A stretch of 64,000 bases of DNA, taken from the NCBI GenBank assembly GCA_963848965.1, contig CAWKFG010000005.1, forward strand, positions 64,686-128,685, given 5' to 3'. The notes beneath the pieces are model-generated. The model saw only the letters and a list, made by a program, of their open reading frames with translations, searched no databases and was not told the DNA's origin. Both the position numbers and the translations under genes were made by a program. Source of the DNA: an uncultured bacterium. Its GTDB lineage: Bacteria > Babelota > Babeliae > Babelales > Babelaceae. How positions within the stretch are numbered: the first letter of the stretch is position 1; each line of letters starts with the position of its first letter. Below, in pieces: positions 2-41,639 of the stretch.

Positions 2-1096
2 TTGGGTAAAAAAGTCGAAAATGTAGTTAAAAATGTAAAAGACAATTATAAGGAAGTTGCAGTAGATGCAGAAGAACGTTACAAACGAATAGAGGCAAGC
101 TTGAAGTGGGCAGCTCTTATAACTGCTACAGTGACAGCAAGTGCCTGGTTTGGCTCACGCTTTTTCTGGAATAGTGTTGAGCGCTATTTTACACAGCCAG
201 AGTTGGTTACAGAGTCATCTTATAAAAATGTGTGGGAACAAGTAACAAATTATTTTTGGCCACAACCGTTAGTATTTAGAGAAATGATTTTCTCTAAAGA
301 GGTTAAGCGAGAATTAGATAATGTTGTTGCAATTACAAAGCATGTTGCACAAGAAAATCAAAAGAACAATCATGCGCAGGTGCGCTATCTTAATGTTCTT
401 TTGTGGGGTCCTCCTGGAACTGGTAAGACCATGTTTGCAAAAGAACTTGCTAAAAAATCAGGACTTGATTATGCAATTACCAGTGGTGCATCATTTTCAA
501 AATTTGATATTGCAGGAGGAATTGCTGCTATCGATAGGCTCTTTAATTGGGCAGAAAAAAGTAAGAAAGGGCTTATCATCTTTATTGATGAAGCAGAAGC
601 CTTTTTAGCAGAACGGGATAGAACGAAGGTTAAAGAAGAAAATCAGCTTGTTACTCATTTTTTAAGCCGTACTGGTGAAGGGAGCAGTAAATTTATGCTT
701 ATTTTTGCTACGAATAAGCCTGAAGTGCTTGATGAAGCAATACGCCGTCGTACACAACGGTCAATAGAGCTGGGTTTACCTGCAAAACCAGAAGCTGCTA
801 AAATATTGCGTTTGTATCGAGATAAAATATTACTTGATAAAGAGCATAATATTCCTGAGCTTATAGACTCAGTAAAAGTAAACTTGAGCGATGAAGCAAT
901 TGAACAGTTAGCAGAAAAACTGAAAGGACTTGCTGCAAGTGAGCTTGAAGATTTTATTAATGACGTAAAAGTTAATGCCGATATCACTGATAATCGCACA
1001 GTAACCAAAGATGTTATTGATTATGTTATAGACTTATCGCGCAGAAAACATGACGAATTTGTAAGTCATTTCCATCATGCTGCTCCAGCAGCATAA
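2..1096 (+). CDS. ATAD3-like membrane-anchored AAA+ ATPase, 5' end outside the window; catalytic motifs intact
   Basis: TM segment WAALITATVTASAWFG, Walker A GPPGTGKT, Walker B IIFIDEAE, sensor-1 ATNKP. Segments SGLDYAI, LFNWAEKSKKGL and FLSRTGEGSSKFML match eukaryotic ATAD3 as recalled. Confidence 0.85.
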   Translation: MGKKVENVVKNVKDNYKEVAVDAEERYKRIEASLKWAALITATVTASAWFGSRFFWNSVERYFTQPELVTESSYKNVWEQVTNYFWPQPLVFREMIFSKEVKRELDNVVAITKHVAQENQKNNHAQVRYLNVLLWGPPGTGKTMFAKELAKKSGLDYAITSGASFSKFDIAGGIAAIDRLFNWAEKSKKGLIIFIDEAEAFLAERDRTKVKEENQLVTHFLSRTGEGSSKFMLIFATNKPEVLDEAIRRRTQRSIELGLPAKPEAAKILRLYRDKILLDKEHNIPELIDSVKVNLSDEAIEQLAEKLKGLAASELEDFINDVKVNADITDNRTVTKDVIDYVIDLSRRKHDEFVSHFHHAAPAA

Positions 1097-1196: not shown

Positions 1197-1802
1197 ATGA
1201 AAAGAATACGGATACACAGTTTTATGTGTATATTTTTGGTACATACATTGAGAGCTGAAATAGTTGTACGACCTGCTGCAATGGCAGATGTTCCAGAAGT
1301 ATTAGAACTTGATAGGCACGTTACCTATGAGTATTTTAAGCCTTTATATGTAAAAGCATATCCACATTTACCATTAGGACAAGATCCAGACCGCTTTCTT
1401 GAACCCGAGTTACAGCAAGATGAGAAAACGTTCTATGACTGTGTAAAAAATCCTGGTAATACACGCTTACATATAGCGTATGATAGTAACAGTAAACGTA
1501 TAGGAGGATTGATTGTTTTTCATAAAGAACATGAAGATACAATAGAATTGGATCTTTTGCTTGTTGACAAAGACTATCGTAAAATGGGAATAGGCAGAAA
1601 GCTTGTATATAATGCTGTTGCTACGTTTAAATACATAAAAACATGTATTGTATATCCTGTACGACATAAAAATGATGCTACACTCAAATTTTACCAGTCA
1701 CTTGGATTTAAGAATCTCGGTGTATGTCCTTTAGATAAAATGAATCCCTATGGTATAAAGTACTCTGATATGTATTTTTATTTTAGGCTTGACGTTATAT
1801 AG
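1197..1802 (+). CDS. GNAT acetyltransferase with probable signal peptide
   Basis: Motif A LLVDKDYRKMGIGRKL; N..A.KFYQSLGF; hydrophobic N-terminus. Confidence 0.85.
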   Translation: MKRIRIHSFMCIFLVHTLRAEIVVRPAAMADVPEVLELDRHVTYEYFKPLYVKAYPHLPLGQDPDRFLEPELQQDEKTFYDCVKNPGNTRLHIAYDSNSKRIGGLIVFHKEHEDTIELDLLLVDKDYRKMGIGRKLVYNAVATFKYIKTCIVYPVRHKNDATLKFYQSLGFKNLGVCPLDKMNPYGIKYSDMYFYFRLDVI

Positions 1803-2034
1803 GAAAATGAAGCAGAAGGCATTGCTACCGCTCTCTATTTGTAGCCAGTTAGCTCTTAAAGTATGTACAGGCATATCTTTTATTGATTGCTTTTCTTTAG
1901 TTACTTGTCATAATAGTAAAGATACTTTCAACAAAAATTTACATATTGACACAAATACAAAAGCTGCTATCTTGAATTAGAATATATTGTAAAATAATCT
2001 TTAGTGCTATTTCACTTAAGTAAGCAGGAAGTCT

Positions 2035-4443
2035 ATGCATACAATCTTCACTATTCTTTTAAAAAGCTTAACTTTCTCTCTACTCGGTATTTCATGTGCT
2101 CTTAGTATGGAGAAAGAAGGCTCCATTCATCAAAAATTACTTACTGCTTGTGAAAACGGTAAGCAAGAAGAAGTCCTTGGGTTATTAGAACAAGGAGCTG
2201 ATATTAATACTCTTGATAGCGATGCCCCCTTAACATTCGCCCTATACCATAAACATTCTTCACTTGCTCACATGCTTATTGAAAAAGGAGCAGACATCAA
2301 CCTTCCAACTTCCGGGCATGCTTTTAGCCCTCTTATGGTAGCAGCAATAGCAGGCATGCAAGATATAGTACGTTTACTTATTGAGTTACGAGCACAAATA
2401 AATGTACAAAGCTCAGAAGGTACAACTGCATTAATGTATGCCCTGATGTATGGCAATCTAGAAATAGCTCAAATGTTGTTAGACGCGGGCGCAGACATAC
2501 ATCTTAAAAATAAGAAAGGGAATAATGCCCTTACTCATGCAGTTGATTACGCATTTATGTTACTTAATCAATTAACTCTTAAAGAACGTAACGCATTAGT
2601 AGAAAAGCACAATTCACTCAAACAACGGCTTTATATTCTCAAAGCTCAAGATGCTTCGCCCGAACTCTATAAAGCCTACATCTCCTTTATAGATACTTTA
2701 CTTTCTTTGAAGATAGAAATGCAATCTCGAGAGGTACAAAAGCTCTTTTGCATAGCGCTAGCAGGAAACAATCTTCCTATTATTAAAACAATAATTGAAA
2801 CTCCAAAGCTTTTTTCCCAACTAGGAGATCTGTCTTATCTTTACTTCATTCCGGTAATAAAAAATCGATATACAGATATAGTAGACTATCTTATTGGATA
2901 CAAAGCATGTATGCCAACTTTACTGTTCGCAGCTGTCCATGAAAGAGATGAAAACCTAGTAATAAGGCTCTTACAAGCAAAAGTAGACATTAATGATACT
3001 TTATTACTAGCTATAGATCGAAATGACAAGAAACTTGTAACGTTACTTCTTGAAAACAATGCTAACTTGAGTGCATCAAATAATCCAGATGAGCCCCCAC
3101 CCCTTATACATGCTACATTTAAAGGTTATAAAGAAATTACAGAAATTCTCTTAGCACATAGAGCATCTTTAGAAACACAGTGGACGAAATCAGGTCGTAC
3201 CGCTCTTATTTATGCTGTTAGAGAAGGACATGTCGCTCTTGTGCAACTGCTTTTAGATGCGGGTGCTAATCCTAATGTTCAAGATAACTCTGGATTTTGG
3301 CCTCTTACATATGCAGCAAAGCATGGAAATGATAGTATTGTACAAGCTCTGCTTAACGCCGGAGCATCCGTTGACGCACAATCTGGTAATGATAAAAGAA
3401 CTCCTTTATTGTGGTGTAATCATCATACAACGGCTCGATTACTTCTTAAAGCCGGAGCCAATGTTAATGCTCTAAATGCATATAAAGAATCACCACTAAT
3501 AGAAGCCATACGTTATGTAAATCCTTCATTAGAGCTCATAAATCTTTTAATCGAATATGGCGTAGATATACATCATGGAGGAGAAGCACCCTTACGGTGG
3601 GCCCTTATGCTGGATGAGATCGAAATAGCTAAGTTGCTTCTGGAAAAAAAGGCCAATCTTGACAGCGCATTTTTTTATGCCGCTAAGCTTCAAGGCCTTA
3701 TTCTTATGGCAAAATTAGTAAGTCTTGGAGCAGATATATCTACCTATGGTGAGCAAATATTTGAATCAGCACAAGAGAATAATCAGTTTGAAGCTTTGCG
3801 CTTTCTTGAAATTCTTGAGCAACCAGAGTTGTATACGTACCTTAAAGATACCTCTAGGGGTATACCCTATTTAAGAACTTGTAATGGACATGCAGAAGGC
3901 TGGCTCAAGTCAGTAACTTCTATGTTCACACCTTCAAGCACTGCAGCAAGCACATGCTTTCATCAAACAAAACTGATGTGGGCTGTTATGTTTGGCCATA
4001 CTGAAGTTGTTAAATCTATACTTAAACGGCAGCAATCTTACCAAAACAAAGAAGATCAGCATAAATTCCGTTGTTATTTAAATGCTCAAGATAAATACGG
4101 TCGCACTGCGCTTATGTACGCTATCATATTTGATGAATCAAAAATATATCCTTTACCATATCAAGCAGAAATACTATCTTTGCTTCTAGAAGCTTATAAA
4201 AACCTTCCAAACTCAGAGCGTAATGCTATTAATATATCTGATATGCAAGGCAACTCTGCTCTTGCATATGCAGTTAAGCAAAAAAATCTCCCTCTTATTA
4301 CGCACTTGTTAGAAATAGGAGCACGACCTACTATAAAATTACTCAAAGATGCAGCAAAGCAAGGACAACATACTATTCTTGCAAAACTACTTTTCTTTGT
4401 ACTTAGGGATTCTCAAGGGTTAAGATATCCTGCTATTTTGTAA
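2035..4443 (+). CDS. Ankyrin-repeat protein, putative secreted effector
   Basis: Many ANK repeats (GTTALMYA, GRTALIYAV, GFWPLTYAA, LLxxGAxxN); signal peptide ending CALS-ME. Confidence 0.92.
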   Translation: MHTIFTILLKSLTFSLLGISCALSMEKEGSIHQKLLTACENGKQEEVLGLLEQGADINTLDSDAPLTFALYHKHSSLAHMLIEKGADINLPTSGHAFSPLMVAAIAGMQDIVRLLIELRAQINVQSSEGTTALMYALMYGNLEIAQMLLDAGADIHLKNKKGNNALTHAVDYAFMLLNQLTLKERNALVEKHNSLKQRLYILKAQDASPELYKAYISFIDTLLSLKIEMQSREVQKLFCIALAGNNLPIIKTIIETPKLFSQLGDLSYLYFIPVIKNRYTDIVDYLIGYKACMPTLLFAAVHERDENLVIRLLQAKVDINDTLLLAIDRNDKKLVTLLLENNANLSASNNPDEPPPLIHATFKGYKEITEILLAHRASLETQWTKSGRTALIYAVREGHVALVQLLLDAGANPNVQDNSGFWPLTYAAKHGNDSIVQALLNAGASVDAQSGNDKRTPLLWCNHHTTARLLLKAGANVNALNAYKESPLIEAIRYVNPSLELINLLIEYGVDIHHGGEAPLRWALMLDEIEIAKLLLEKKANLDSAFFYAAKLQGLILMAKLVSLGADISTYGEQIFESAQENNQFEALRFLEILEQPELYTYLKDTSRGIPYLRTCNGHAEGWLKSVTSMFTPSSTAASTCFHQTKLMWAVMFGHTEVVKSILKRQQSYQNKEDQHKFRCYLNAQDKYGRTALMYAIIFDESKIYPLPYQAEILSLLLEAYKNLPNSERNAINISDMQGNSALAYAVKQKNLPLITHLLEIGARPTIKLLKDAAKQGQHTILAKLLFFVLRDSQGLRYPAIL

Positions 4444-4457
4444 TACGATAAGCAGTA

Positions 4458-6143
4458 TTACTCTTTTATATTAGATAACATCTTAAGGTATATTCTTTTG
4501 CCCTCAACAGCAATACCATAAGCAAAGATTTGATTAAGACCTCGAGCATGAAGTTCTTGCATATACTGTTTCTCAAGAATTTGATCAATGGCTTTTTGCG
4601 CAGCAATTTCAAGAGTTTCACTAGCAAGAGTCTTCTTAAACTCAATAACTATAGCTGGTTTATTATGCTGCTTTGGTATAAGCATTATATCATAACGACC
4701 AAATCCGCTTTTTTTATTTGATTTAACTTCATACTGATCATGAAGCATAACAAGAAGTCCCAAAACAAAAAGATGATAGCTTTTCTCAGGCTCATTGCTC
4801 GATACATCAAAGAAACTCATACTGTTTAGTATAAAACCTTGCAATAATTCAGCAAAGGATTCAGCCTCCCCTTGGGTAAGAGTTTCAAGCAGATCTTTTA
4901 CCTGACCACCAACAACCGATTCTTGGAAAATATTTCTAATAAGCTCTGAGTAAAGATGCTTTATTTCTTGATTTGGGATCGTAAGAGAGCATATTTTTGT
5001 TCCCTCTTTAAGTTCCCAGTGAGTATATGTCAAATAACCGGTAAATAATAAAAGACTCCACAAAAGCTCGGTGCGGTGATCTAAATCTGGAAATATAATC
5101 GATTCTTGAATTGCTTGATCTACAGATTTATCTTCAAGCAAAAGTTCAAGATCTGATTTCACAGACTTAGGTGCTCGGGCTATAAGCTTTTTTACAAGCG
5201 CGTTATCGCTAGTGTTTGCCCAATACTTTTCCAATAAACCTCTATTTTGAACACATTTTAGCACCGACCAAGGGTTAAAAATACCTTTAACTTCACCAAA
5301 GGTATACCCATCATACCACTCTTGAATTTTTTTAGCATCATCTTGAATACCATAATACTGTAACAGCGTATGAACCTCTTCATACGTAAAACCAAATTTA
5401 TCTGCCATAACAAAACGCGTAAGACTAAATACATCAAGGTTATTAAGCCCTGTAAATATCCCCGCTTTTGCAAGAGTTAAAATACCAGTAATAACCCCTT
5501 TTTCAAGAATATCACTATCTTTAAACACCGCAGTCAAGAGTCCTCTTGCAAACTCAATAGCTTGATCATAAAATCCATTAATATAAGCCGATTGTATAGG
5601 GGTATCATATTCATCAATAAGGATAATAACCTTCTTATTGTATCTTCTATAAAGAAGCTGTGCTAAAAAATGAAGACTATCTTCAAGCTCTGCTTTGGAA
5701 GCAGTTCCTTCAAGAATTCGTTTATACCTATCTTTTTCGTGGTTTTTTAAAGAATCGTGAAAAAGTATTTCCTGATGTCGTGCATATTCTTCATAAATAA
5801 CCAAAGCAAATTTATCATATGTTACATCCCAGGTTGCTTCTTTAATATTCTTAAATGTAACAAATATGACAGGAAATTGTCCTTGAAGAACACGTTGTTC
5901 AGGATAGCTCCAAATAGCTTTATCTTGAAAAAGATGAGCATTGCTTTCTTCGCTTGCTTCAAAAAAGTATTTAAGCATAGATAAGTTGAGCGTTTTACCA
6001 AAGCGTCGAGGACGAGGAGCAAGTATAATCTGACCATGTTCTAAGATATCTTTTATTAAAAGAGTCTTATCAACATAGTAATAGTTATTCTCAATAAGAG
6101 TTTTAAAGTTACTGATACCGATAGGTAATAATTTCTGTGTCAT
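4458..6143 (-). CDS. AAA-ATPase-like + PD-(D/E)XK nuclease (PDDEXK_9 type) protein
   Basis: LPIGISNF, YVDKT, PRPRRFGKT, IDEYDTP, C-terminal GRYD...IEFK; start placed at MTQKLLPIG. Confidence 0.9.
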   Translation of the reverse strand: MTQKLLPIGISNFKTLIENNYYYVDKTLLIKDILEHGQIILAPRPRRFGKTLNLSMLKYFFEASEESNAHLFQDKAIWSYPEQRVLQGQFPVIFVTFKNIKEATWDVTYDKFALVIYEEYARHQEILFHDSLKNHEKDRYKRILEGTASKAELEDSLHFLAQLLYRRYNKKVIILIDEYDTPIQSAYINGFYDQAIEFARGLLTAVFKDSDILEKGVITGILTLAKAGIFTGLNNLDVFSLTRFVMADKFGFTYEEVHTLLQYYGIQDDAKKIQEWYDGYTFGEVKGIFNPWSVLKCVQNRGLLEKYWANTSDNALVKKLIARAPKSVKSDLELLLEDKSVDQAIQESIIFPDLDHRTELLWSLLLFTGYLTYTHWELKEGTKICSLTIPNQEIKHLYSELIRNIFQESVVGGQVKDLLETLTQGEAESFAELLQGFILNSMSFFDVSSNEPEKSYHLFVLGLLVMLHDQYEVKSNKKSGFGRYDIMLIPKQHNKPAIVIEFKKTLASETLEIAAQKAIDQILEKQYMQELHARGLNQIFAYGIAVEGKRIYLKMLSNIKE

Positions 6144-6473
6144 CAATTGCCTCAAAGCATGAGGGAAAGCGTTAATCACAGTATAGTACCCCTTATGCAA
6201 AATTGCAATGCCCCTTGCTTTTACCAAAATAAGCTTACACATGAAAGTTAGCTGGAATATAGTATCAATATTTGATGCCAATGTTAGGAAGAAGAGACTT
6301 TTGTGTTATTGAAACTCTTTGCATTTTCTTTAAACATTTGAAATTTAGCTTTTCTTAGATTCTGCTCTTACATGAGCATTTTATGCCGAACACTTAGGCA
6401 TTTTTCATATAAAAGTTTACCAGGTATACTAGGTAAGAATAGCAGAATGCTATTGTTATTGAGGAGAATTTTT

Positions 6474-7925
6474 ATGAGTTTAAGAATATTATTTTTGTGC
6501 GCACTAACCCTTTCTGTAGGTTCGTATACCTACAGTATGCAATGGGCTAAAGACAAGCTTGGCAAAGCGATAGGTGAGGTAGGTGCAGGAGCAACGAAAG
6601 CATATCTTGAGGATAACAAAACTCATGAGGCTTTTCATACGCATATTGTACAACCTGCTGTTGATAAGATGAATGAAGTGAAAGACCATGCAAAAAAAGC
6701 TGCAGAAGAGATGGTAGAAAATGCCAAGAAGGCAAGCGAAAAAATGAAACAAGAGCTTGAAGAACAAGCAAAAAAAGCAAATGAGGAATTTAAGAAAAAT
6801 ACACACGAAGCTACAGATAAGTTTAAAGAGAGCATATTAAAACCAACAGTTGATGAAGCTCATAAGTTTAAAGATGCAACTGTTAAAGAGGCTGATAGAC
6901 TCTTTGATAGGCTTTCTGAAACTATAAAGACAGGAGCATTATGGACAGTTGGCGGTGCTGCTGCTATATTTTCGATATGGTATGCTTATAAATTTTTATG
7001 GAACCATGTTGAAAAAGCATTGCACAAACCAGCCATTCCTTTACGCTCGGCACATCCGGGTTTTTTTGGTCGTATTAAGAACTTCTTTAGCAGTTCAGAA
7101 AGCTTTACACCTCGTCCACTATTTTTTGCTCCTGAGCTTAAAGACAGGTTACAAGGTATTTTAGATATAGCACTTGATACTGCACGTCGAATTCAAGCAG
7201 GAGATAAAACTGCAACTTATAGTAATCTTTTACTATGGGGCCCTTCAGGTACTGGAAAGCGATCATACGCACAGCAGCTTACTCGTGAGTTAGCACAAGC
7301 TGCAAATATGGACTATGTTTTCCTTGATGGTGCTTTCTTTGCTCCTGTAAAGAATGGTACACCGCTTGAAAGAATAGATACGCTTTTTGAGAAAGTACAA
7401 AATAACTCGCGAAATACTATCATATTTATTGATCAGGCGAAGTTCTTGCTTTCAAAACATCATACTACTGATGTTATTATGGAACGATTCTTAAAATATG
7501 CAAAAGAACATAGTAATAAGTATATGATCATCTTCACGACAGCTCCTATACACATTGCAGAAGAAGTAAAAGGAATAATAGGAGATTCAGTAGAAATTGG
7601 ATTACCTGAATTACCTCAAATAATTGATATACTCAAACATTATCGAGATACATTATTAATTAATAATACAGCTAATCCAAGCTCTTTAGTAGAGTCTGCA
7701 CAAAAAACGCTTGTCGATGAATCAATAGAGAGTTTAGCACAAGAGCTCAAAGGATTCTCTTGTAGAGACCTTGAAAATATTATTAAGGCAATTCAAGATA
7801 AAGCTCGTCGCCAAGATTGTATAATATCTACTGCTGTTGTTAAAGCTGCAGTTGCAGAAGCTACTAAGAAATATCAAGACTTTAAGACGAATCTTCCCCA
7901 TCAGTATGCAGCACAAACTGCATAA
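6474..7925 (+). CDS. ATAD3-like AAA+ paralog 2, with signal peptide, coiled coil, TM and altered Walker motifs
   Basis: RBS GAGGAG at 6461; Walker A GPSGTGKRS, Walker B IIFIDQAK; colinear with ORF 2..1096. Confidence 0.8.
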   Translation: MSLRILFLCALTLSVGSYTYSMQWAKDKLGKAIGEVGAGATKAYLEDNKTHEAFHTHIVQPAVDKMNEVKDHAKKAAEEMVENAKKASEKMKQELEEQAKKANEEFKKNTHEATDKFKESILKPTVDEAHKFKDATVKEADRLFDRLSETIKTGALWTVGGAAAIFSIWYAYKFLWNHVEKALHKPAIPLRSAHPGFFGRIKNFFSSSESFTPRPLFFAPELKDRLQGILDIALDTARRIQAGDKTATYSNLLLWGPSGTGKRSYAQQLTRELAQAANMDYVFLDGAFFAPVKNGTPLERIDTLFEKVQNNSRNTIIFIDQAKFLLSKHHTTDVIMERFLKYAKEHSNKYMIIFTTAPIHIAEEVKGIIGDSVEIGLPELPQIIDILKHYRDTLLINNTANPSSLVESAQKTLVDESIESLAQELKGFSCRDLENIIKAIQDKARRQDCIISTAVVKAAVAEATKKYQDFKTNLPHQYAAQTA

Positions 7926-7934
7926 AGAACTCAT

Positions 7935-7962
7935 AAGCCTCCGGTAAAATGGAGGCTTTTTT
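7935..7962 (+). terminator. Rho-independent terminator
   Basis: AAGCCTCC-ggtaaaat-GGAGGCTT followed by T tract. Confidence 0.8.
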
Positions 7963-8025
7963 CATACAGAGCTTTTACTTTTGCTCTCTTATTACGGTAT
8001 GCTATAAAAAAGGGGGGGAGAGAGC

Positions 8026-8742
8026 ATGCTTGTCGTATTACTAAGCTTTTTTTATGAGTTTGTGCGCTTGTGTTTAACTAGTAAAGTGTTTGCTCTTATA
8101 GTTCTAGGAGCAGTATGTCTACAGTTTTTTACTAATACTTTTGAAAAAGTATATAATAAGCCAGTTCCTCCTGCAGCAATGCTATTACACGCTCCAGCTG
8201 TTTCTCACTCTATAGCTCCTTTGGCATCTCCTGTTTTACAATCGCAGTCTATTCCATTTATAGGTGCTCTCTATGCTTTTGTAAGACAAGGAATGAATTT
8301 TCATGCGCCTGCTTCATCTACAGATGGTGTTCCGCCTTCAGGAGCTATCCCAACTTCTTCTGATAGCGATAAAAAAGATCCTCGTTGGATTTTAGAGAGT
8401 AAAAATACTGTTTTTTTGGGAACAAGCATTACAGCAGGACTTATTGCTTTGTGGGCTGCAGGTAACTACTTACTTCCTGAGTCTCAACACGAAAAGCAAC
8501 CAGTAAGAACACAAGATATGAAGCAAGCTATGCTAGAAAAGCTCCAACATACTGTTACTGTTTTTAACCCAGAAGTAAAGATTTCTGACAGAGAGCTTGA
8601 GCAGCTTTCTACGTTCCTTTTGCATATGCAGCAACAGACCAAGAAACAAAGTATCTCTATCCGTTGTAAAAATTTTATTCAAGCATGGACTAAATACTTT
8701 ATTGCTCGCTATACCCAACACAAAACTTTGCTTTCTTTATAG
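8026..8742 (+). CDS. Membrane protein, possibly an internally deleted ATAD3-like paralog
   Basis: Two hydrophobic segments; VFLGTSITAGLIALWAAGNYLL and ISDRELEQLS resemble the TM and C-terminal helix of neighbouring paralogs. Confidence 0.55.
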   Translation: MLVVLLSFFYEFVRLCLTSKVFALIVLGAVCLQFFTNTFEKVYNKPVPPAAMLLHAPAVSHSIAPLASPVLQSQSIPFIGALYAFVRQGMNFHAPASSTDGVPPSGAIPTSSDSDKKDPRWILESKNTVFLGTSITAGLIALWAAGNYLLPESQHEKQPVRTQDMKQAMLEKLQHTVTVFNPEVKISDRELEQLSTFLLHMQQQTKKQSISIRCKNFIQAWTKYFIARYTQHKTLLSL

Positions 8743-8819
8743 ATATTTTCTATCCTCTGTGGTAAAGAAGAATATATACTTTAAAAAACGTATATCATCT
8801 ATAGAGAAGAGAGAAAACT

Positions 8820-10331
8820 ATGCAGGTTGAGATGTTAATGTTAGCAGGGTCTATAACCTTTATAGCGTGGGCTTTACTGTATCATTTTAATGAGATACTA
8901 TTCTGGAGTGCGCTTGGTCTTTTTGGTGCTGCAGGAACAGTCAGGGTTCATAATTACTTGAATCAGACTGTAAAAGTAGAACAAGGTGCTGCTCCTACCT
9001 CTAGACAGCGTGTTGCTTTACTTGTTAAACATTATGTAAATTCTGTTGTAACTGTTGTAGGTCCTCCTGTAGAGCGTGTTGCTAATTCTGTAGTGGCTAC
9101 TCAAACAGGGCAAGTGTGCTTGCGTATGTGGCAACGTATAAAAAGTTATATACCCTTAAGATTTCTAGCAGCATCAGTATTAGGCGCAGCTCCGAGAGTC
9201 AATGCTGCAGTACCCGGTAATAGAGAGGGAGTGGCAGTTAACATAGCAGAAGAAAGTGGTAGATTTGGTGCCCAAGCTGCTGATAGCTTTATACATAATG
9301 TTATGCAAGCACCACATGTACGTGAAGTTATAGATAGCTTACGACAAGCTGTTGGTGATGGCAGACCACTTGGAGAAGCTGTAAAGAAAATGGCAGAGCC
9401 TATTGCTGAAGAGATAGGCAAAGGTCTGGAAGAAGCTGAAACAAAGATGGAACAAAAGGCTGCAGCTGTAAAAGGAGAATTTAAAGGTGCAATTTTTTGG
9501 GGCACTACTCTTTTAGTAGGGGCAATGGGTGCCTGGTTTTTATTAAAACATCTTCTTGCAAAGCCAAATCAGGATCAAAACAAATCACGCATCCGAGTTC
9601 CAGAATTTGAAAAAAGGCCTATAGAACGACTACGTTCATTATATACAAGAAGCTCTCATACTTCACCAGAATTGTTCTTTGAGTCTTCATTACAAGAACA
9701 TCTAAATGCTGTTAAAGAACTTATTATTTCGGTAAGGAAGAAAAAATACGAAGAAACTGTAGACTGTTCTTATCCTCGAGTGCTGTTGTATGGGCCGCAA
9801 GGAACTGGTAAGCGGTCATTTGCTCAAAGTGTTGCACAAGCTGCTGGTATGAGCTTTATACCTGTTACAGGATCAGCATTCTTTGCTTTTAAAGGAACAG
9901 ATGCATTTAAAGCTGTAGATACCTTATTTGATGAAATTAAACAAAATACAAAGGGTGCAGTACTGTTTATAGAACAAGCAGAACTGTTGCTATCTCAACC
10001 TAAGGATGAGCAACCTACTGATGATCGTGCAGTTTTTATAGCATATTTTGCAGAGCAGATAAAAGATATAAGTAAACTATGCCCTATAGTGTTTGCTCTA
10101 GAGGAGCTTCCTCATCCTTTGCATAAAATATCTAAGGGCTGCATTACTCATCAAATATCATTTACTTTACCAACTGTTAAAGAGCGACTGAGAGTACTTA
10201 AACTTTTTAACACTAGGCTGCAAGAATCACAAAAGAATGTGCTGAATGATCAAGAGATTGAAGCTCTTGCTCATGATCTTGAAGGAGCTACGTATGTAGA
10301 TCTTCAAAAAGCACTTGTAGGCGTTTACTAG
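8820..10331 (+). CDS. ATAD3-like AAA+ paralog 3, degenerate
   Basis: TM IFWGTTLLVGAMGAWFLL; Walker A GPQGTGKRS; Walker B VLFIEQAE; lid helix LNDQEIEALAHDLEG. Confidence 0.78.
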   Translation: MQVEMLMLAGSITFIAWALLYHFNEILFWSALGLFGAAGTVRVHNYLNQTVKVEQGAAPTSRQRVALLVKHYVNSVVTVVGPPVERVANSVVATQTGQVCLRMWQRIKSYIPLRFLAASVLGAAPRVNAAVPGNREGVAVNIAEESGRFGAQAADSFIHNVMQAPHVREVIDSLRQAVGDGRPLGEAVKKMAEPIAEEIGKGLEEAETKMEQKAAAVKGEFKGAIFWGTTLLVGAMGAWFLLKHLLAKPNQDQNKSRIRVPEFEKRPIERLRSLYTRSSHTSPELFFESSLQEHLNAVKELIISVRKKKYEETVDCSYPRVLLYGPQGTGKRSFAQSVAQAAGMSFIPVTGSAFFAFKGTDAFKAVDTLFDEIKQNTKGAVLFIEQAELLLSQPKDEQPTDDRAVFIAYFAEQIKDISKLCPIVFALEELPHPLHKISKGCITHQISFTLPTVKERLRVLKLFNTRLQESQKNVLNDQEIEALAHDLEGATYVDLQKALVGVY

Positions 10332-10394
10332 ATTAACTGTCTTAAAAAAATGTAGTAAACTCTGCACTATACGATTATTCAAAGAGGTGCAGAG

Positions 10395-12239
10395 TTGTGG
10401 ATCATAGTTCTTTTTTTTACCATTACTTTCTTTGCTGAATCTGCTGTACAGTGGACTCAGGATGCGAGTACTTATGAGTTTTCTGTCTATTTTCAACCAG
10501 AAGCAGTGTATGCAAAGAATATCTATTGGTTGAATAATGAAGCATGTGACGAAGTATTATATGCACGCCATTACCTTGACCTTCAATCACTATATACGTA
10601 TCGCGAAGATGTAATGAAAGCTAAGGCTGTCGTACGTTCTCGCACGATCTGGGGTCATACACCAGAAGCACTATGCACAAGTAGGGTCCCTGTTAAAGAG
10701 TTTGGCATAACTTTTGGAGGACATAAGCATGGGCTCTGGTTGAGTGAAGTATGGATACGCGAGCTATGGCTTGAAGGTAGTCTAAACGATTTTTTAGGAT
10801 TGCCTTTTTGCAATCGACATATACTTACTATTGGTGCTTTTTCTTTTGAATTAGGCAGAGGTATCTCATTAGGCTCTGCATATCCGAATTTCCCTCTTTT
10901 AGTAGGTGTGGATATTGATAGTGCAATTGATCAATATGCATTTGGAGCAAAACTGTCAGGAGAACTCTCTAAAAATCATCTTTGGTATGATATTTATGGA
11001 GCTATTTTTAGAGAACGAGCACTTGATATAACTGATGATGATCTTTTTGAGCGAGCTTGTGATCGCGGTACCTATGGTTATAAAGCCCATCCGTTTGAAA
11101 GAACTTTGCACTGTGGACTTCGTGATTTTGCTGTTGCAGCACGACTGAGGTGGGAACCGCTTGATAAAGATGAGAAAAAAAAGGTATATTTTGAACCTTA
11201 TGTGCTCGCGTATCATGCTCCTGACCTAAAAATAGAATTTTCTCATGAAGGGAAAAGTACTTTAGTAACACTGGGGCTTGCTGGAGAGTATACGTTTAAA
11301 AATGTTGAATGTGGTTTTGAGTGGGCTTTTAATAGAGGAGGTCAAGAGGTATTTGGTCTTGATAGAAATAAGCTTATTATGCATGACGATAACGGCGTTC
11401 TTCAAGTAGTTAATGACCAAGTAGTTGTCAGCAGTATAGATCATGATGCTTTAGCGACTCCAAAAAATGAGAAACTTATTCGTTTGTCACCTGCTTGTCA
11501 AAGTAAGAACGGGAAACCACTTTCATCTACTTTAAAGAATAAGCCTTTTAGATTCCAAGATCCTTATTGTGTTCAGTATAGAGGCTTTTTTTTCGTTGCA
11601 GATCTGAGTTTTATTCTTTTAAAAGATACGTGTAAAGTGAGTTGTACCTGGGGCTATGCATCTGGTGATAATGATGTGCATAAAAGGATACTAAAGGAAC
11701 ATATATTAGAAGACTGTAAAAAAGTTGTAGATTTTACAGGGTTTGTAAGCGTTAACGAAACCTATGTTGGCAAGCGGGTGCTGAGTGCACTTTTTCTTAA
11801 TGGTGTTGGTGTTTTTCCTCGTCCTATCACCTTTGGCTCTGTTATAGATTCTTCTGCTTCTTTAGTAGGAGGTTTTACCAACTTAGTGCTTGCCGGTTTT
11901 TCTACCGATTTATGGTATAAATTAGAGCCACATCGATGGCATATTAACCCTAATGTACTCTTTTTTTGGCAAGACCATTCTCCTTGCTGGAAAGACAAAA
12001 AAGTTCCTTCTTACTTAGGAGTGGAGCTCAATTGTATAACTGAGATGCAGCTTTTTAAGGATTTTTCTTTCTATGCTATAGGGTCTGTATTTGTGCCAGG
12101 CTCTTGTTATAAGTTTCTTACAGGAGTGCCTCTTAGCAGTGAACAGGTAGAGAGTTTTGAAGAGCATAAGGTATCTCATGGCTTTCTTGGGCATGATCCT
12201 GCATACCTTATTAACTTTGGATTGAAATATACGTTTTAA
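10395..12239 (+). CDS. Putative outer-membrane beta-barrel protein
   Basis: Signal peptide, aromatic-rich amphipathic strands, C-terminal Phe motif INFGLKYTF. Confidence 0.65.
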   Translation: MWIIVLFFTITFFAESAVQWTQDASTYEFSVYFQPEAVYAKNIYWLNNEACDEVLYARHYLDLQSLYTYREDVMKAKAVVRSRTIWGHTPEALCTSRVPVKEFGITFGGHKHGLWLSEVWIRELWLEGSLNDFLGLPFCNRHILTIGAFSFELGRGISLGSAYPNFPLLVGVDIDSAIDQYAFGAKLSGELSKNHLWYDIYGAIFRERALDITDDDLFERACDRGTYGYKAHPFERTLHCGLRDFAVAARLRWEPLDKDEKKKVYFEPYVLAYHAPDLKIEFSHEGKSTLVTLGLAGEYTFKNVECGFEWAFNRGGQEVFGLDRNKLIMHDDNGVLQVVNDQVVVSSIDHDALATPKNEKLIRLSPACQSKNGKPLSSTLKNKPFRFQDPYCVQYRGFFFVADLSFILLKDTCKVSCTWGYASGDNDVHKRILKEHILEDCKKVVDFTGFVSVNETYVGKRVLSALFLNGVGVFPRPITFGSVIDSSASLVGGFTNLVLAGFSTDLWYKLEPHRWHINPNVLFFWQDHSPCWKDKKVPSYLGVELNCITEMQLFKDFSFYAIGSVFVPGSCYKFLTGVPLSSEQVESFEEHKVSHGFLGHDPAYLINFGLKYTF

Positions 12240-16125: not shown

Positions 16126-17799
16126 ATGAAAAAGCTACCCATAGGAATTAGTGATTATAAGAAGGTTATAGAAGATAGTTATTACTACGTAGATAAAACT
16201 CTTCTTATAAGAGAAGTGCTAGATATCAACGGCGAAGTAGTTTTACTGCCACGCCCACGTCGGTTTGGCAAAACCTTAAATCTTTCAATGCTTCAATACT
16301 TTTTTGAGCATACTATCACTAAGCATGATTATCTCTTTTATGATACTGCTATTTGGCAAGATGAGTCAAAAAAAAAGCTTCAGGGTTCTTATCCTGTTAT
16401 CTTCTTGACCCTTAAGGATGTTAAAGAAAGCAACTGGGAATATGCTTATGCTCGTATGGCATCAGTAATTACTGATGAGTTTAGGCGCCATGCACCCGTG
16501 CTGCTGCCCACACTTTCTTCTTACTATCTAAAGGATTATACTGCTATTCTTGAAAGAACAGCGGGCTATGTTGATTACGGCCAAAGTCTGTTGCTTTTAT
16601 CAAATCTTTTAAGCGACCATTATCAAGAAAGAGTTATGGTGCTTATTGATGAATATGATACTCCTATTCATGCAGCTTATGTACATGGTTATTATGATAA
16701 AATTATCGATTTCATGCGCTCATTGCTTACTGCTGTTTTGAAAGACAATAAATCACTAAAAAAGGGAATTTTAACAGGAATCTTACGTACAGCGAAGGAA
16801 GGCATATTTTCCGGGCTTAATAATCTGGATGTGTTTACGCTTACCAAATCTACATTTTCAGATAAATTTGGCTTTACTCAAGAAGAAGTGGATCAGTTGT
16901 TAGCTTACTACAACTTATTAGAGACAAAAGACGCCGTCACTCAATGGTACAACGGTTATAAATTTGGCAATACGGTCATTTACAACCCTTGGTCCCTTAT
17001 AAAGTGTGCCTCTGAAAACGGTAGATTACAGCCTTATTGGGTTAATACTAGCGATAACCAGCTTATTAAAAAGCTTATTGCATTATCAGATACTGATACC
17101 AAGTTAGAATTGGAAAAACTTCTTACCAAGCAGCCTATTACTCAAGAAATAGATGAGGCATTTATTTTCCCGGGTATTGAGGACAACCCTCGAGCACTAT
17201 GGAGTCTTTTGCTTTTTACTGGCTATGTAACCTATACTCACTGTGATCTTGTAGAAGGAAAGGAATTCTGCAATCTAACTATTCCCAATAAAGAAATTAA
17301 CTTACTTTATCAAGATCTCATCAAGGCTATATTTGAGCAAGCTCTAGCCCTACCAAAGATACGGCAGCTTATACAAGCCCTTACCCATGGTGACAGCGAA
17401 ACGCTTACAGTACTTCTTCAAGAATTTATACTCAACAGCGCAAGTGTATATGATTTCTCTGACAGAGATCTTGAGAAAAGCTATCATCTTTTTGTCTTAG
17501 GTCTTTTGGTTCTTTTAAGCGACCATTATGAGATAAAATCAAATCGAGAAGCTGGGTATGGTCGCTTTGATATTATACTTATTCCTTACGAAGAACATAA
17601 AGCTGGTATTATTATCGAGCTCAAGAAAGTATTAACCGCAAAAAATGAAACGTTTGAGTCAGCAGCAACAAGAGCACTCGAGCAAATAGAAAGTATGCAT
17701 TATGCTCAAGAACTACGAGGACGCCATCTAACCTCTATTATAGCTTTTGGTATTGTCTTTGAAGGCAAAAAAGTGCTTGTACAATCACGAAGGCTTTAG
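16126..17799 (+). CDS. AAA-ATPase-like + PD-(D/E)XK nuclease protein, paralog of 4458..6143
   Basis: LPIGISDY, PRPRRFGKT, IDEYDTP, SNREAGYGRFD...IIELK. Confidence 0.9.
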   Translation: MKKLPIGISDYKKVIEDSYYYVDKTLLIREVLDINGEVVLLPRPRRFGKTLNLSMLQYFFEHTITKHDYLFYDTAIWQDESKKKLQGSYPVIFLTLKDVKESNWEYAYARMASVITDEFRRHAPVLLPTLSSYYLKDYTAILERTAGYVDYGQSLLLLSNLLSDHYQERVMVLIDEYDTPIHAAYVHGYYDKIIDFMRSLLTAVLKDNKSLKKGILTGILRTAKEGIFSGLNNLDVFTLTKSTFSDKFGFTQEEVDQLLAYYNLLETKDAVTQWYNGYKFGNTVIYNPWSLIKCASENGRLQPYWVNTSDNQLIKKLIALSDTDTKLELEKLLTKQPITQEIDEAFIFPGIEDNPRALWSLLLFTGYVTYTHCDLVEGKEFCNLTIPNKEINLLYQDLIKAIFEQALALPKIRQLIQALTHGDSETLTVLLQEFILNSASVYDFSDRDLEKSYHLFVLGLLVLLSDHYEIKSNREAGYGRFDIILIPYEEHKAGIIIELKKVLTAKNETFESAATRALEQIESMHYAQELRGRHLTSIIAFGIVFEGKKVLVQSRRL

Positions 17800-31420: not shown

Positions 31421-33100
31421 TTATGTAGTACCATTTTTTTTGAGTAACGATTGTAAAAGAGTAAAAAGAGTACTTTTGTCGTTGTCTTCAACATCTGGTG
31501 GTGTAGCACTATCAGGAGCATCTAAAATAGTATATTCTTTTTGGAGGCCCTCTTTTATATATTGAGGTAATTTTCTAAATATTCGAGCTCTATTTTCAGA
31601 TAATAGTATTGGTTTGTTGCTTATTGATTTTTTGTATTGTAAGTACCATATAAGTATAACTTTATCTAAGTCTAAGAAGCTGTTAAGAGCAAAAAGGTCA
31701 TAAAGCCGTACTGTTCTATCAACTGAAGCAGTAGCAATGTATCTTCCATTGGGTGAAACTGCTATACTAGTAATTGCTCCTCTATGAAGAGCGATTTCAA
31801 GGCAATCAAAGTTGCTTAAATTCCAGATTTTTAACACACCTGTACTTGTGCCAGTAGCAGCAAAAACTCCTATAGGGCTAATTGCTACAGCAGTCACTCT
31901 TTGTGATCGATGTTCTAATTCTGTTTGTCGACTAGTTTTAAGATCGAGTATATAGCACTTATGGGTATCCTTAGCAGTATAAATAAGCTTTTTGGTAGTA
32001 CTAACATCCAGGAGCTGTATTTGTTGACGTAAGGAACTTTTAGTATCAAGCCTATTCGCATCTAAGCTATAAAGCTTTGCTGTTCCACCTTTTGAGCTAA
32101 AAAGTATATAGTTATTTTGAGAGGTAGGCAGAATTGGGATGTCCTGTTCAGTAACACCCCGAAGAACAACTGAGTGATTAAATTTATCGACAGGAATAAA
32201 GTTTTGTGCAATATCGCCAAAAAACAATTTATCGGTATCGCGTGTTTGTACTAAAAACATTGTTCCAGAAGGATAAAAATTTATTTTCACAAGAGGTGAT
32301 GTAAGTGAGGTAACTTGAAGAGACTCTTGTTTAATAAGATTCCACAGACAGATTCTCCCATCTGCGGATCCTGCTAAAACAATATTTTGGTTATTTACGG
32401 CGATGCTTGTTATTGTGTCCTGAGGTCCAATAAGACGAGATTGAGGTGCTACAACATCTTGAGTAATCTTCCATACAACAGCTTCTTGATCTGCAGATCC
32501 TGTAATAAGAAGATTGCTAGTGGGGTTAAAGGTAATTGCAGTAACTTTATCTCCATGCCCTTTAAAAAGCAGCGTTCCTCCATCGGCTTCAATTATTTCT
32601 TGAGGAGTAGTTGGTACGCTCTTGAGAAGTTGTTTGTTAATTTCGATAGCTTCTTCAGGTGCTGGAACTGCTGATAGTATACTATCAAATGATTTCCCAT
32701 ATAAAATAGAAAGGCGCCATAAAAGGCAAGCATTATGGTCAAATATAGCGTTTTTTGCTACCGAAATGTCATCTTTTTTATCTTCTTTATCTGCATACCA
32801 TGTAGGCAGTAACCGTCTCATAAAAGATTCGCTGGATTTTTCAGGAAATATTTCTTTCATAAGTGCTCGATGGGTTTCAGAAGTGTCACAAGGATTTTGT
32901 AAAAGGAGCACACTGCTCTGGATACTACTAACGTTAGCTGATGACTTCACTGAAGGTGGCGCCGTCATTATCGACTCAGAAATTATTTCTTGTTGAGTAG
33001 CTACTGTTATGCTTGATTCTTCAGGAGGTGCTTCCATACCACATACATAGGAAGATGCTACATAAGTACTAATGGAAAAGATAAGCACTCTTATTTTCAT
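31421..33100 (-). CDS. WD40-repeat protein, putative effector
   Basis: GHGDKVTAITF...GSADQEAVVW, HRGAITSIAVSPNG...ASVDRTVRLYD; signal peptide VCG-ME. Confidence 0.88.
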   Translation of the reverse strand: MKIRVLIFSISTYVASSYVCGMEAPPEESSITVATQQEIISESIMTAPPSVKSSANVSSIQSSVLLLQNPCDTSETHRALMKEIFPEKSSESFMRRLLPTWYADKEDKKDDISVAKNAIFDHNACLLWRLSILYGKSFDSILSAVPAPEEAIEINKQLLKSVPTTPQEIIEADGGTLLFKGHGDKVTAITFNPTSNLLITGSADQEAVVWKITQDVVAPQSRLIGPQDTITSIAVNNQNIVLAGSADGRICLWNLIKQESLQVTSLTSPLVKINFYPSGTMFLVQTRDTDKLFFGDIAQNFIPVDKFNHSVVLRGVTEQDIPILPTSQNNYILFSSKGGTAKLYSLDANRLDTKSSLRQQIQLLDVSTTKKLIYTAKDTHKCYILDLKTSRQTELEHRSQRVTAVAISPIGVFAATGTSTGVLKIWNLSNFDCLEIALHRGAITSIAVSPNGRYIATASVDRTVRLYDLFALNSFLDLDKVILIWYLQYKKSISNKPILLSENRARIFRKLPQYIKEGLQKEYTILDAPDSATPPDVEDNDKSTLFTLLQSLLKKNGTT

Positions 33101-33251
33101 AGATACCCCCCTTATATTTACTTGCAATTTTATAGCATTGTGAGGAAGTCTTAGCAACACATAACTGCTTAGTAGTTAAGAAAGAAAATAGTACTCTAGA
33201 CTCTTATTTTTTCATTGTAACAGAAAGTGCTCGAGGGTCAAATACAAACAC

Positions 33252-41437: not shown

Positions 41438-41639
41438 AATGTCCCTGCTCCTAGTAATAAAGAAAGAGCCTACTATAATACTTAGTGTATCATAGCAGAA
41501 TATTAATGCCACAGTTCAACTGTTGATCAAAGAAGTATAAAGTATACGGCTTTATATTTCTGCTTGATGAGCTTTGCGCACTCTTATGCTTTATGGTAAC
41601 CTAGAAGCTAACCAAGGTAAAATAACAAACGGGAAACTC

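Follow-up and report, generated by a model that had tools for sequence, protein, structure and literature searches.

Two ATAD3-type AAA paralogs of a Dependentiae bacterium have lost four catalytic elements and are very probably retained as pseudo-ATPases

We examined a 64,000-nucleotide stretch (the window; assembly GCA_963848965.1, contig CAWKFG010000005.1, positions 64,686 to 128,685 of the forward strand) from the genome of a protist-dependent Dependentiae (Babeliales-type) bacterium (G000; 1.73 Mb in five contigs), and in it two genes, P2 and P3, that encode AAA proteins whose nearest named family is the mitochondrial ATPase ATAD3. In both proteins, as read from their translations, Arg replaces the Mg-binding Thr of Walker A and Gln the catalytic Glu of Walker B, and neither the sensor-1 Asn nor the trans-acting Arg finger is present. 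P2 and P3 are very probably retained pseudo-ATPases, whose role is probably that of a non-catalytic partner or scaffold, not of a motor. The fuller reading that we favour, in which these retained pseudo-ATPases also co-assemble with live paralogs of the same genome, we hold at even odds (probability about 0.5).

The reading frames of P2 (window 6474..7925, plus strand, 483 aa) and P3 (8820..10331, plus strand, 503 aa) run uninterrupted from ATG to stop and score 36.5 and 45.2 bits against PF00004, whose gathering cutoff of 21.2 bits is exceeded by all four paralogs of this genome. The Walker A motif of P2 reads GPSGTGKRS (7239..7265, plus), with Arg in place of Thr/Ser, and its Walker B motif FIDQAK (7425..7442, plus), with Gln in place of the catalytic Glu; the corresponding motifs of P3 are GPQGTGKRS (9792..9818, plus) and FIEQAE (9966..9983, plus). 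The sensor-1 Asn has gone from FTTA-P in P2 and FALEEL in P3, leaving Ala and Glu respectively at that position, and the Arg finger has given way to EVKGII in P2 and ISKGCI in P3. With GKR, DQ and neither a sensor-1 Asn nor an Arg finger in P2, and GKR, EQ and the same two absences in P3, both fall outside the catalytically active AAA proteins. The other two paralogs are canonical and look live. P1 enters the window with its C-terminal 364 residues (2..1096, plus strand; PF00004 90.3 bits), the 5' part of the full gene (G000:C5:63853-65781, 642 aa) lying upstream of the window edge, and carries GPPGTGKT (nt 407-430), FIDEAE (581-598), FATNKP with the sensor-1 Asn and AIRRRT with the Arg finger. 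P4 is encoded on another contig (G000:C4:258245-259801, minus strand; PF00004 90.7 bits) and has GPPGTGKT, (F/I)IDEAE, the sensor-1 Asn and the Arg finger. An original prediction, made from the DNA letters, had reported GKT and DE in P1, GTGKRS and FIDQA in P2, GTGKRS and FIEQA in P3, and full-length open reading frames (ORFs) for the latter two, all of which the translations bear out. Its count of two altered motifs was correct for those motifs and understated the loss, which extends to four elements. Its analogy with the Walker B E-to-Q substrate trap was too narrow, because the lost elements include the Arg finger; for the same reason P2 and P3 are not simply ATP-locked traps.

P1 to P4 share a layout of hydrophobic, signal-peptide-like N-terminus, long helical N-domain, transmembrane (TM)-like segment and AAA domain, followed in all except P3 by a C-tail. 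TM segments were assigned from hydropathy and alignment together, a strict hydropathy threshold detecting one in P3 only. In P2, the start at 6474 is supported by a GAGGAG about 8 nt 5' of the ATG and by a sister-genome ortholog that begins at the same Met, which is also the Met of the recorded gene call; the signal-peptide-like N-terminus is followed by a K/E-rich helical N-domain, a TM-like segment near residue 153, the AAA domain (residues 216-441) and a C-tail ending AAQTA. P3 has two hydrophobic segments in its N-terminus, then an N-domain, a TM segment at about 224-242 and the AAA domain, and ends some 45 residues short of P1 and P2; since its sister ortholog stops at the same place, the short C-terminus is not a truncation artefact. 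Ala-rich C-terminal tails that recall degradation tags (AAPAA, AAQTA, AAAAA, APAAA, AVAA) occur in many family members, including P1 (window 1076-1093), P2 (7902-7922), P4 and the live orthologs at L063, L065, L067 and L071; P3 and most dead-clade proteins lack one. An AlphaFold2 (AF2) model of P2 from a 45-row alignment reached a mean predicted local distance difference test score (pLDDT) of 77.7, with values above 90 across the AAA part (residues about 210-470) and of 40-65 in the helical N-domain. Foldseek matched it best to classical-clade AAA structures (Ycf2-FtsHi first, with i-AAA, Rpt and FtsH; E 1e-12 to 1e-14), and on this model the AAA fold of P2 is intact. A scan against NCBIfam gave no match for P2 and, for P1, P3 and P4, only sub-threshold matches to the CDC48, FtsH, PAN and CdvC models.

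Word-indexed searches returned one close relative each for P2 and P3, both on a single 69.5-kb contig of another assembly. The P2 ortholog (P0003) was 83 % identical with no gap column over 483 residues and keeps GPSGTGKRS and FIDQAK. The P3 ortholog (P0005) was 53 % identical globally (51 % by BLASTP) with 30 gap columns and carries GPHGTGKRS and FIKQAE, so that the Walker B Asp position of this lineage varies, being Glu in G000 and Lys in the sister genome. Both orthologs therefore retain GKR and the Gln instead of canonical motifs. The P1 ortholog (P0023) was 72 % identical overall with 48 gap columns, comprising 90 % in the AAA domain and 57 % in the N-domain. The same partition between the sister genomes gave 85 % (AAA) and 88 % (N-domain) for P2, and 66 % and 32 % for P3. 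Judged by these identities, P2 is under no weaker constraint than the live P1, whilst P3 is clearly less constrained. A profile of P2, P3, P0003 and P0005 searched against 1.84 billion representatives recovered P0005 (849 bits) and P0003 (614 bits) far ahead of any further match, the third-ranked reaching only 211 bits; the P2 and P3 lineages themselves are therefore rare. A search for P0003 in metagenome contigs produced 318 pattern matches, none of which was confirmed, and found no sister-genome DNA.

Alignment of the AAA domains of the collected family proteins to the family hidden Markov model (298 rows by 228 columns) placed P2 and P3 in a larger degenerate group. In a FastTree phylogeny of all 298 rows, both fell within a 29-leaf clade (support 85) nested inside a 32-leaf clade (support 96), and canonical Walker A or B motifs were lacking in 29/29 and 32/32 of these leaves, versus 9/209 family rows outside the wider clade. 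The core dead clade was kept (Shimodaira-Hasegawa-like approximate likelihood ratio test, SH-aLRT, 93) in a quick IQ-TREE analysis (LG+C20, posterior mean site frequencies (PMSF)) of 99 rows, 89 of them chosen from the 298 and 10 from proteins of the syntenic loci, from which 34 motif columns had been removed. There, P2 and P0003 grouped with two proteins carrying GKT and ID-H-A (SH-aLRT 97), and P3 and P0005 with proteins carrying GSGK[R/H/Q..] and IDNA (SH-aLRT 93). Membership of P2 and P3 in an old dead clade is favoured by these trees, though not proven. We then tallied residues in the 28 unique rows of the core clade. The P-loop Gly, Gly, Gly and Lys of G-x-x-G-x-G-K were present in 28/28. 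The residue after GK was Arg in 18, His in three, Thr in two and Gln, Tyr, Trp, Lys and Gly once each, compared with Thr/Ser in 207/209 rows outside. The Walker B Asp was found in 21/28, whereas the catalytic Glu was found in none (Asn 21, Gln four, His three; 200/209 outside), the sensor-1 Asn in 3/28 (205/209 outside) and the Arg finger in 0/28 (202/209 outside). Giant proteins of 1558-2124 aa with four to six AAA stretches (P0147, P0197, P0207, P0216, P0234, P0242 and P0253), which were excluded from the trees, contain one similarly degenerate module with GYPGNGK[R/K/E/H/A] and [D/R][N/H/Y]A at Walker B.

Selection was gauged from the ratio of nonsynonymous to synonymous divergence (dN/dS, Nei-Gojobori NG86) between two congeneric genomes, G053 and G047, for which dS was 0.15-0.20. 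The dead AAA gene gave 0.121 (dS 0.151) and the live AAA gene 0.111, alongside 0.040 for the predicted outer-membrane barrel gene OMP1, 0.041 for nfo, 0.051 for aspS and 0.364 for a small ORF between the AAA genes. This member of the dead clade is under purifying selection comparable to that on its live neighbour. Ratios from G052 versus G051 were unusable through saturation (proportion of synonymous differences, pS, 0.74-0.80), and the dead genes of G010 and G024, although reciprocal best matches, were 38 % identical and too distant for dN/dS. The original prediction had held that the two genes are retained and not decaying, and had named canonical motifs in orthologs or a dN/dS near 1 as signs to the contrary. 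Retention is upheld by the GKR and Gln kept in the sister genome, by a uniformly dead clade that preserves its P-loop, and by the value of 0.12, which is far from 1 and stands for a dead-clade gene in a different genus from that of P2 and P3.

The description of these proteins as ATAD3-like also proved sound, with search ranking, alignments and profile comparison all naming ATAD3 as the nearest named family. A search with the C-terminal 313 residues of P1 scored 7998 proteins, of which 2314 reached E 1e-10; the best 120 of these 2314 ran from bacterial relatives to ATAD3 proteins with PF12037 and PF00004 (about 151 bits) and then to CDC48-type proteins (about 137 bits), such that within these 120 the AAA domain is closest to ATAD3 among named AAA families by a modest score margin. 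The same 120 included proteins of Candidatus Dependentiae, Babeliales and Chromulinivorax metagenome-assembled genomes (MAGs) named simply 'AAA family ATPase' (P0048, P0063, P0064 and P0073), as well as relatives from Patescibacteria and Oligoflexales MAGs. P4 aligned to oyster ATAD3 with 31 % identity over 335 residues (E 2e-51), spanning the TM segment, the linker (P.L..ETS), the AAA domain and the C-tail. Comparison of the P4 clade with ATAD3 by hhalign returned a probability of 100 (E 1.7e-59, 316 columns), limited to positions 180-511 versus 243-570. P2 was 23 % identical to an animal ATAD3 (E 4e-18) and collinear over the span seen in P4, from the TM-like segment onward. In the alignments of P4, its clade and P2, a TM segment and linker thus stand directly before the AAA domain, as in ATAD3. 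The ATAD3-type C-tail (..AYASEDGVLT..) was clear in P4 (AYATESGALT), of weak identity in P2 and absent in P3. ATAD3_N (PF12037) gave no match in P1 to P4 at E values up to 0.01 and none by hhalign of the P4 clade, and ATAD3 was not represented in the 60 best of the 260 PDB sequence matches obtained with P1. Protein-atlas neighbours included ATAD3 clusters at 0.91-0.94, which is a lead only. An arrangement with eukaryotic ATAD3 nested inside the bacterial family, seen with FastTree and quick IQ-TREE, was dropped after an approximately unbiased (AU) test, in which a tree holding all 87 bacterial rows together fitted better (lnL 20.4 higher, p-AU 0.754). By sequence comparison, the bacterial family and eukaryotic ATAD3 are nearest relatives, for which we claim no branching order. 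A review states, in its accessible part, that ATAD3 exists in eukaryotes only (PMC7663417).

Gene order around P2 and P3 links dead and live copies at a shared locus. In G000, the order is nfo, OMP1, P1, an insertion (a GNAT gene, an ankyrin protein gene and a PF09820/PF08011 gene), P2, orf238, P3, OMP2, orf228 and aspS. Six genomes of genus g11 display nfo, OMP1, a live AAA gene and a dead AAA gene followed by OMP2 or aspS, and these dead genes fall in the core dead clade in the IQ-TREE analysis. The gene directly before OMP2 is P3 in G000 and a dead gene in G052, G051, G048 and G010; P2 occupies a position between P1 and P3. At this locus, a live gene alone is present in G008 and G003. In G014 (genus g15), a live gene is followed by a tandem copy (L071:8755-10179) that is independently degenerate, with GPPGTGKS, FIDKAD and the Arg finger lost, and that groups with live proteins. 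A locus search with a five-row dead-clade alignment returned three loci only, in G053, G047 and G010.

On our favoured reading, P2 and P3 would still bind nucleotide or phosphate without turning it over, and would be unable either to hydrolyse ATP or to activate a neighbour's site. In their predicted topology, a signal-peptide-like N-terminus is followed by a periplasmic helical N-domain, a single TM segment crossing the inner membrane and a cytoplasmic AAA domain, which would be the bacterial counterpart of the topology of ATAD3 in mitochondria. They may co-assemble with live paralogs, either P1 from the same locus or P4, and in such a mixed ring would be non-catalytic subunits that lower or gate the activity of the ring and add a different periplasmic N-domain. 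P2 and P3 would thereby belong to an AAA machine that spans the envelope, as its integral regulatory or structural partners. There is a precedent in primates, where ATAD3B is reported, in the part of the review available, to join ATAD3A oligomers and to be dominant negative (PMC7663417).

Several observations weigh against this reading. Physical support for co-assembly of P2 or P3 with P1 or P4 is absent, and a mixed ring would be a poor motor, because a subunit without an Arg finger disables the adjacent live site. P3 evolves fast (53 % identity, 32 % in the N-domain), which could mean relaxed constraint, and the dN/dS value comes from a clade member of another genus, not from P2 or P3. As the 298 rows were gathered with a dead-sequence profile and P1, the census counts are not natural frequencies. 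The AU test also allows a single lineage-specific clade of P1, P2, P3 and their sister orthologs (lnL 24.0 lower, p-AU 0.213). At the locus, G010 and G024 have only a dead gene, so that a live neighbour is not obligatory, although both genomes carry P4-type live paralogs elsewhere. P1 and P2 are separated by 5.3 kb and three unrelated genes, one of them on the opposite strand, and terminator-like hairpins, from a consensus scan only, follow both P1 (1103..1125, plus strand; 9-pair stem, 7 GC, then a T-run) and P2 (7935..7958, plus strand; 9-pair stem, 5 GC, then a T-run); given the distance, the opposite-strand gene and the hairpins, the two genes are not one operon here. Finally, nfo and aspS are housekeeping genes, and the conserved order may therefore be the backbone synteny of small genomes and not the mark of a functional unit. 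A complex prediction for P1 345-642 with P2 185-483 scored 0.00 against a mark of 0.32 and, having been run with no controls, gives no verdict in either direction.

The strongest rival, which we consider a lesser but real possibility, is that the dead paralogs form static, nucleotide-stabilized inner-membrane oligomers of their own, unmixed with live subunits, in which the helical N-domain organizes periplasmic or outer-membrane contacts. The solitary dead genes of G010 and G024 are consistent with such autonomy, as are the hairpin of P2 and its distance from P1, the invariant P-loop of the dead clade and the P2 N-domain, whose better conservation between sister genomes than that of P1 (88 % versus 57 %) suggests a function of its own. 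The history of the locus argues otherwise, in that dead copies have arisen at least twice by tandem duplication beside a live copy, the live-dead pair has been kept adjacent in six g11 genomes, and live paralogs were present in every examined genome having a dead copy.

It is improbable that P2 and P3 are directed at the host, exported so as to reach its mitochondria, where they would insert themselves into the ATAD3 oligomers of the host, or compete with them, and so change how the mitochondria are built. AAA subunits that cannot hydrolyse are classic dominant negatives, ATAD3 is the closest named family and the N-termini resemble Sec signals. The cultured Dependentiae Chromulinavorax destructans is also described, in the accessible part of its report, as remodelling and expanding the host mitochondrion and as having signal peptides on 44 % of its coding sequences (PMC6561590). 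It would be a long shot to extend this into a scheme in which dead ATAD3-type proteins are exported mimics of host ATAD3 that poison or re-wire its oligomers and so drive the mitochondrial expansion and wrapping seen around Chromulinavorax as it replicates, with ancient gene exchange between protist and parasite linking the two families. Against any such role, ATAD3_N, said to mediate ATAD3 oligomerization, was undetected in P1 to P4, P2 is only 23 % identical to animal ATAD3, the internal TM segment would arrest Sec export as a stop-transfer signal, and no mitochondrial targeting feature was seen in P2 or P3, whose N-termini are Sec-like. Relatives also occur in Patescibacteria and Oligoflexales MAGs, at least some of which have no mitochondria-bearing host (Patescibacteria, on the available portion of PMC12102498). 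The live paralogs share the architecture, so that the layout is native to the family, and with positive support for a decoy role absent, a native topology is the simpler explanation.

We give slightly less credence still to P2 and P3 being enzymes after all, in which a cation after GK and an Asn, Gln or His at Walker B would sustain a nucleoside triphosphatase of non-canonical type, which might be very slow or independent of Mg, or some other phosphotransfer. The pattern of substitution is non-random, as this idea would have it, with P-loop Gly and Lys invariant in 28/28, a mostly cationic residue after GK (Arg 18, His three, Lys one of 28) and a polar, hydrogen-bonding substitute at Walker B in every case (Asn 21, Gln four, His three). 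The sensor-1 Asn is nonetheless kept in only 3/28 and the Arg finger in none, and in AAA proteins that have been studied E-to-Q alone abolishes hydrolysis. That P2 and P3 are decaying duplicates on the way to pseudogenes is very improbable, since the divergence of P3 from its sister ortholog (53 % identity, 30 gap columns), its lost C-tail and its varying Walker B Asp (Glu in G000, Lys in the sister) are outweighed by ORFs intact in two genomes, a P2 free of indels and, at 83 % identity, above the 72 % of live P1, a P-loop invariant across the clade and a dN/dS of 0.12 in a clade member.

Both barrel genes at the locus are neighbours of the AAA genes by conserved gene order, and we treat any link of the predicted barrels to P2 and P3 as context only. 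OMP2 (10395..12239, plus strand) is a predicted outer-membrane beta-barrel from AF2 and Foldseek; its model is mostly beta (pLDDT 68, predicted TM-score 0.67), with AlgE alginate-export barrels as best matches (E 1e-13, TM-scores 0.46/0.65). Its paralog OMP1, likewise a predicted outer-membrane beta-barrel, precedes P1 upstream of the window (G000:C5:61551-63680; L070:6552-8681) and is 58-66 % identical across genera. The two are 37 % identical and neither has a Pfam match. Between P2 and P3 lies orf238 (8026..8742, plus strand), an orphan ORF of 238 aa with two hydrophobic segments, for which we found no Pfam match and no relative in the fetched loci or elsewhere in the genome. We considered it as a remnant of a duplicated N-domain and rejected this, as it had no similarity to any family protein or to the rest of the genome. 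In g11, a small ORF in an orf238-like position is a partial copy of the N-terminus of the dead gene, 34-38 % identical. The stretch between P1 and P2 (window 1197-6281) has no counterpart at the syntenic loci in other genera and holds the GNAT acetyltransferase, an 802-aa protein with a hydrophobic N-terminus that reads as ankyrin-repeat, and the gene with PF09820 (AAA-ATPase_like) and PF08011 (PD-(D/E)XK), of which a second copy was found at 16126-17799.

Elsewhere, the window (about 37 % GC) encodes AspRS, GatB, RNase G, MnmE, PolA and PriA, in addition to ankyrin and WD40 proteins. A 579-aa ORF (31421-33160, minus strand) encodes a eukaryote-like WD40 beta-propeller protein, and a 765-aa ORF (39215-41512, minus strand) contains two tandem D-Ala-D-Ala ligase N and C modules. 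Towards the contig end (57150-64000), GC content rises sharply, from about 33 % to 60-68 %, and the genes there encode a thiolase, an aldo-keto reductase, a TctC-type receptor and a GFO/IDH oxidoreductase. This region has the appearance of DNA from a high-GC bacterium, brought in by a chimeric join or by contamination. One public DNA sequencing run, sharing 0.06 of words with 6300-10400, yielded two short identical contigs (8212-8367 and 10135-10308); no RNA sequencing run was found listed for 6300-10400.

These proteins may be of use in several respects. A sister family in bacteria, whose members are small and tractable, would open a fresh way of studying how proteins of the ATAD3 type reach across two membranes, and a selected, uniformly dead clade that keeps its P-loop and has a cation for the Mg-binding Thr is a natural experiment on the purpose of a non-hydrolysing AAA subunit. 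As Dependentiae depend on and remodel host cells, P2 and P3 also mark a candidate envelope or host-interface system. Our literature search, which covered neither supplements nor subscription journals, found among the papers listed none pairing Dependentiae with ATAD3 or treating bacterial ATAD3-type proteins, and no description of the Dependentiae AAA family or its dead clade; the term 'AAA' is absent from the main text of the Chromulinavorax paper (PMC6561590). Dead AAA paralogs are known as a kind, and the bacterial ATAD3-type family itself is undescribed in the literature searched.

The closest counterparts are the 'AAA family ATPase' proteins of Dependentiae, Babeliales and Chromulinivorax, which belong to the same family and whose names are automatic only. 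Next come the eukaryotic ATAD3 proteins (ATAD3A, Drosophila bor and C. elegans ATAD-3), mitochondrial inner-membrane AAA proteins that form the nearest named family to P1 to P4 and seem equivalent in topology, with the N-domain between two membranes and the AAA domain on the inner side. They differ in that P1 to P4 are bacterial, with a signal-peptide-like N-terminus and no PF12037 detected, and in that ATAD3 keeps the four catalytic elements that P2 and P3 have both lost. Primate ATAD3B and ATAD3C offer a parallel, in that a paralog beside the main gene is reported to join its oligomers as a negative regulator, yet on the accessible part of the review they differ mainly at their termini, not by loss of Walker, sensor or Arg-finger residues (PMC7663417). 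They also derive from a recent primate duplication and not from an old clade. Heteromeric AAA assemblies in which some modules are diverged or non-catalytic have classical-clade AAA folds like that of P2; examples are the Ycf2-FtsHi motor, which was the top Foldseek match, Pex1/Pex6 with its D1 ring and NSF with its D2 ring. In these systems, non-hydrolysing nucleotide-binding modules are structural parts of the ring; a GK[R/H/K] P-loop together with Asn, Gln or His in place of the catalytic Glu is not known from any of them. No sequence-level orthology connects them to P2 and P3, and the co-assembly that we propose here for P2 and P3 has been demonstrated there.

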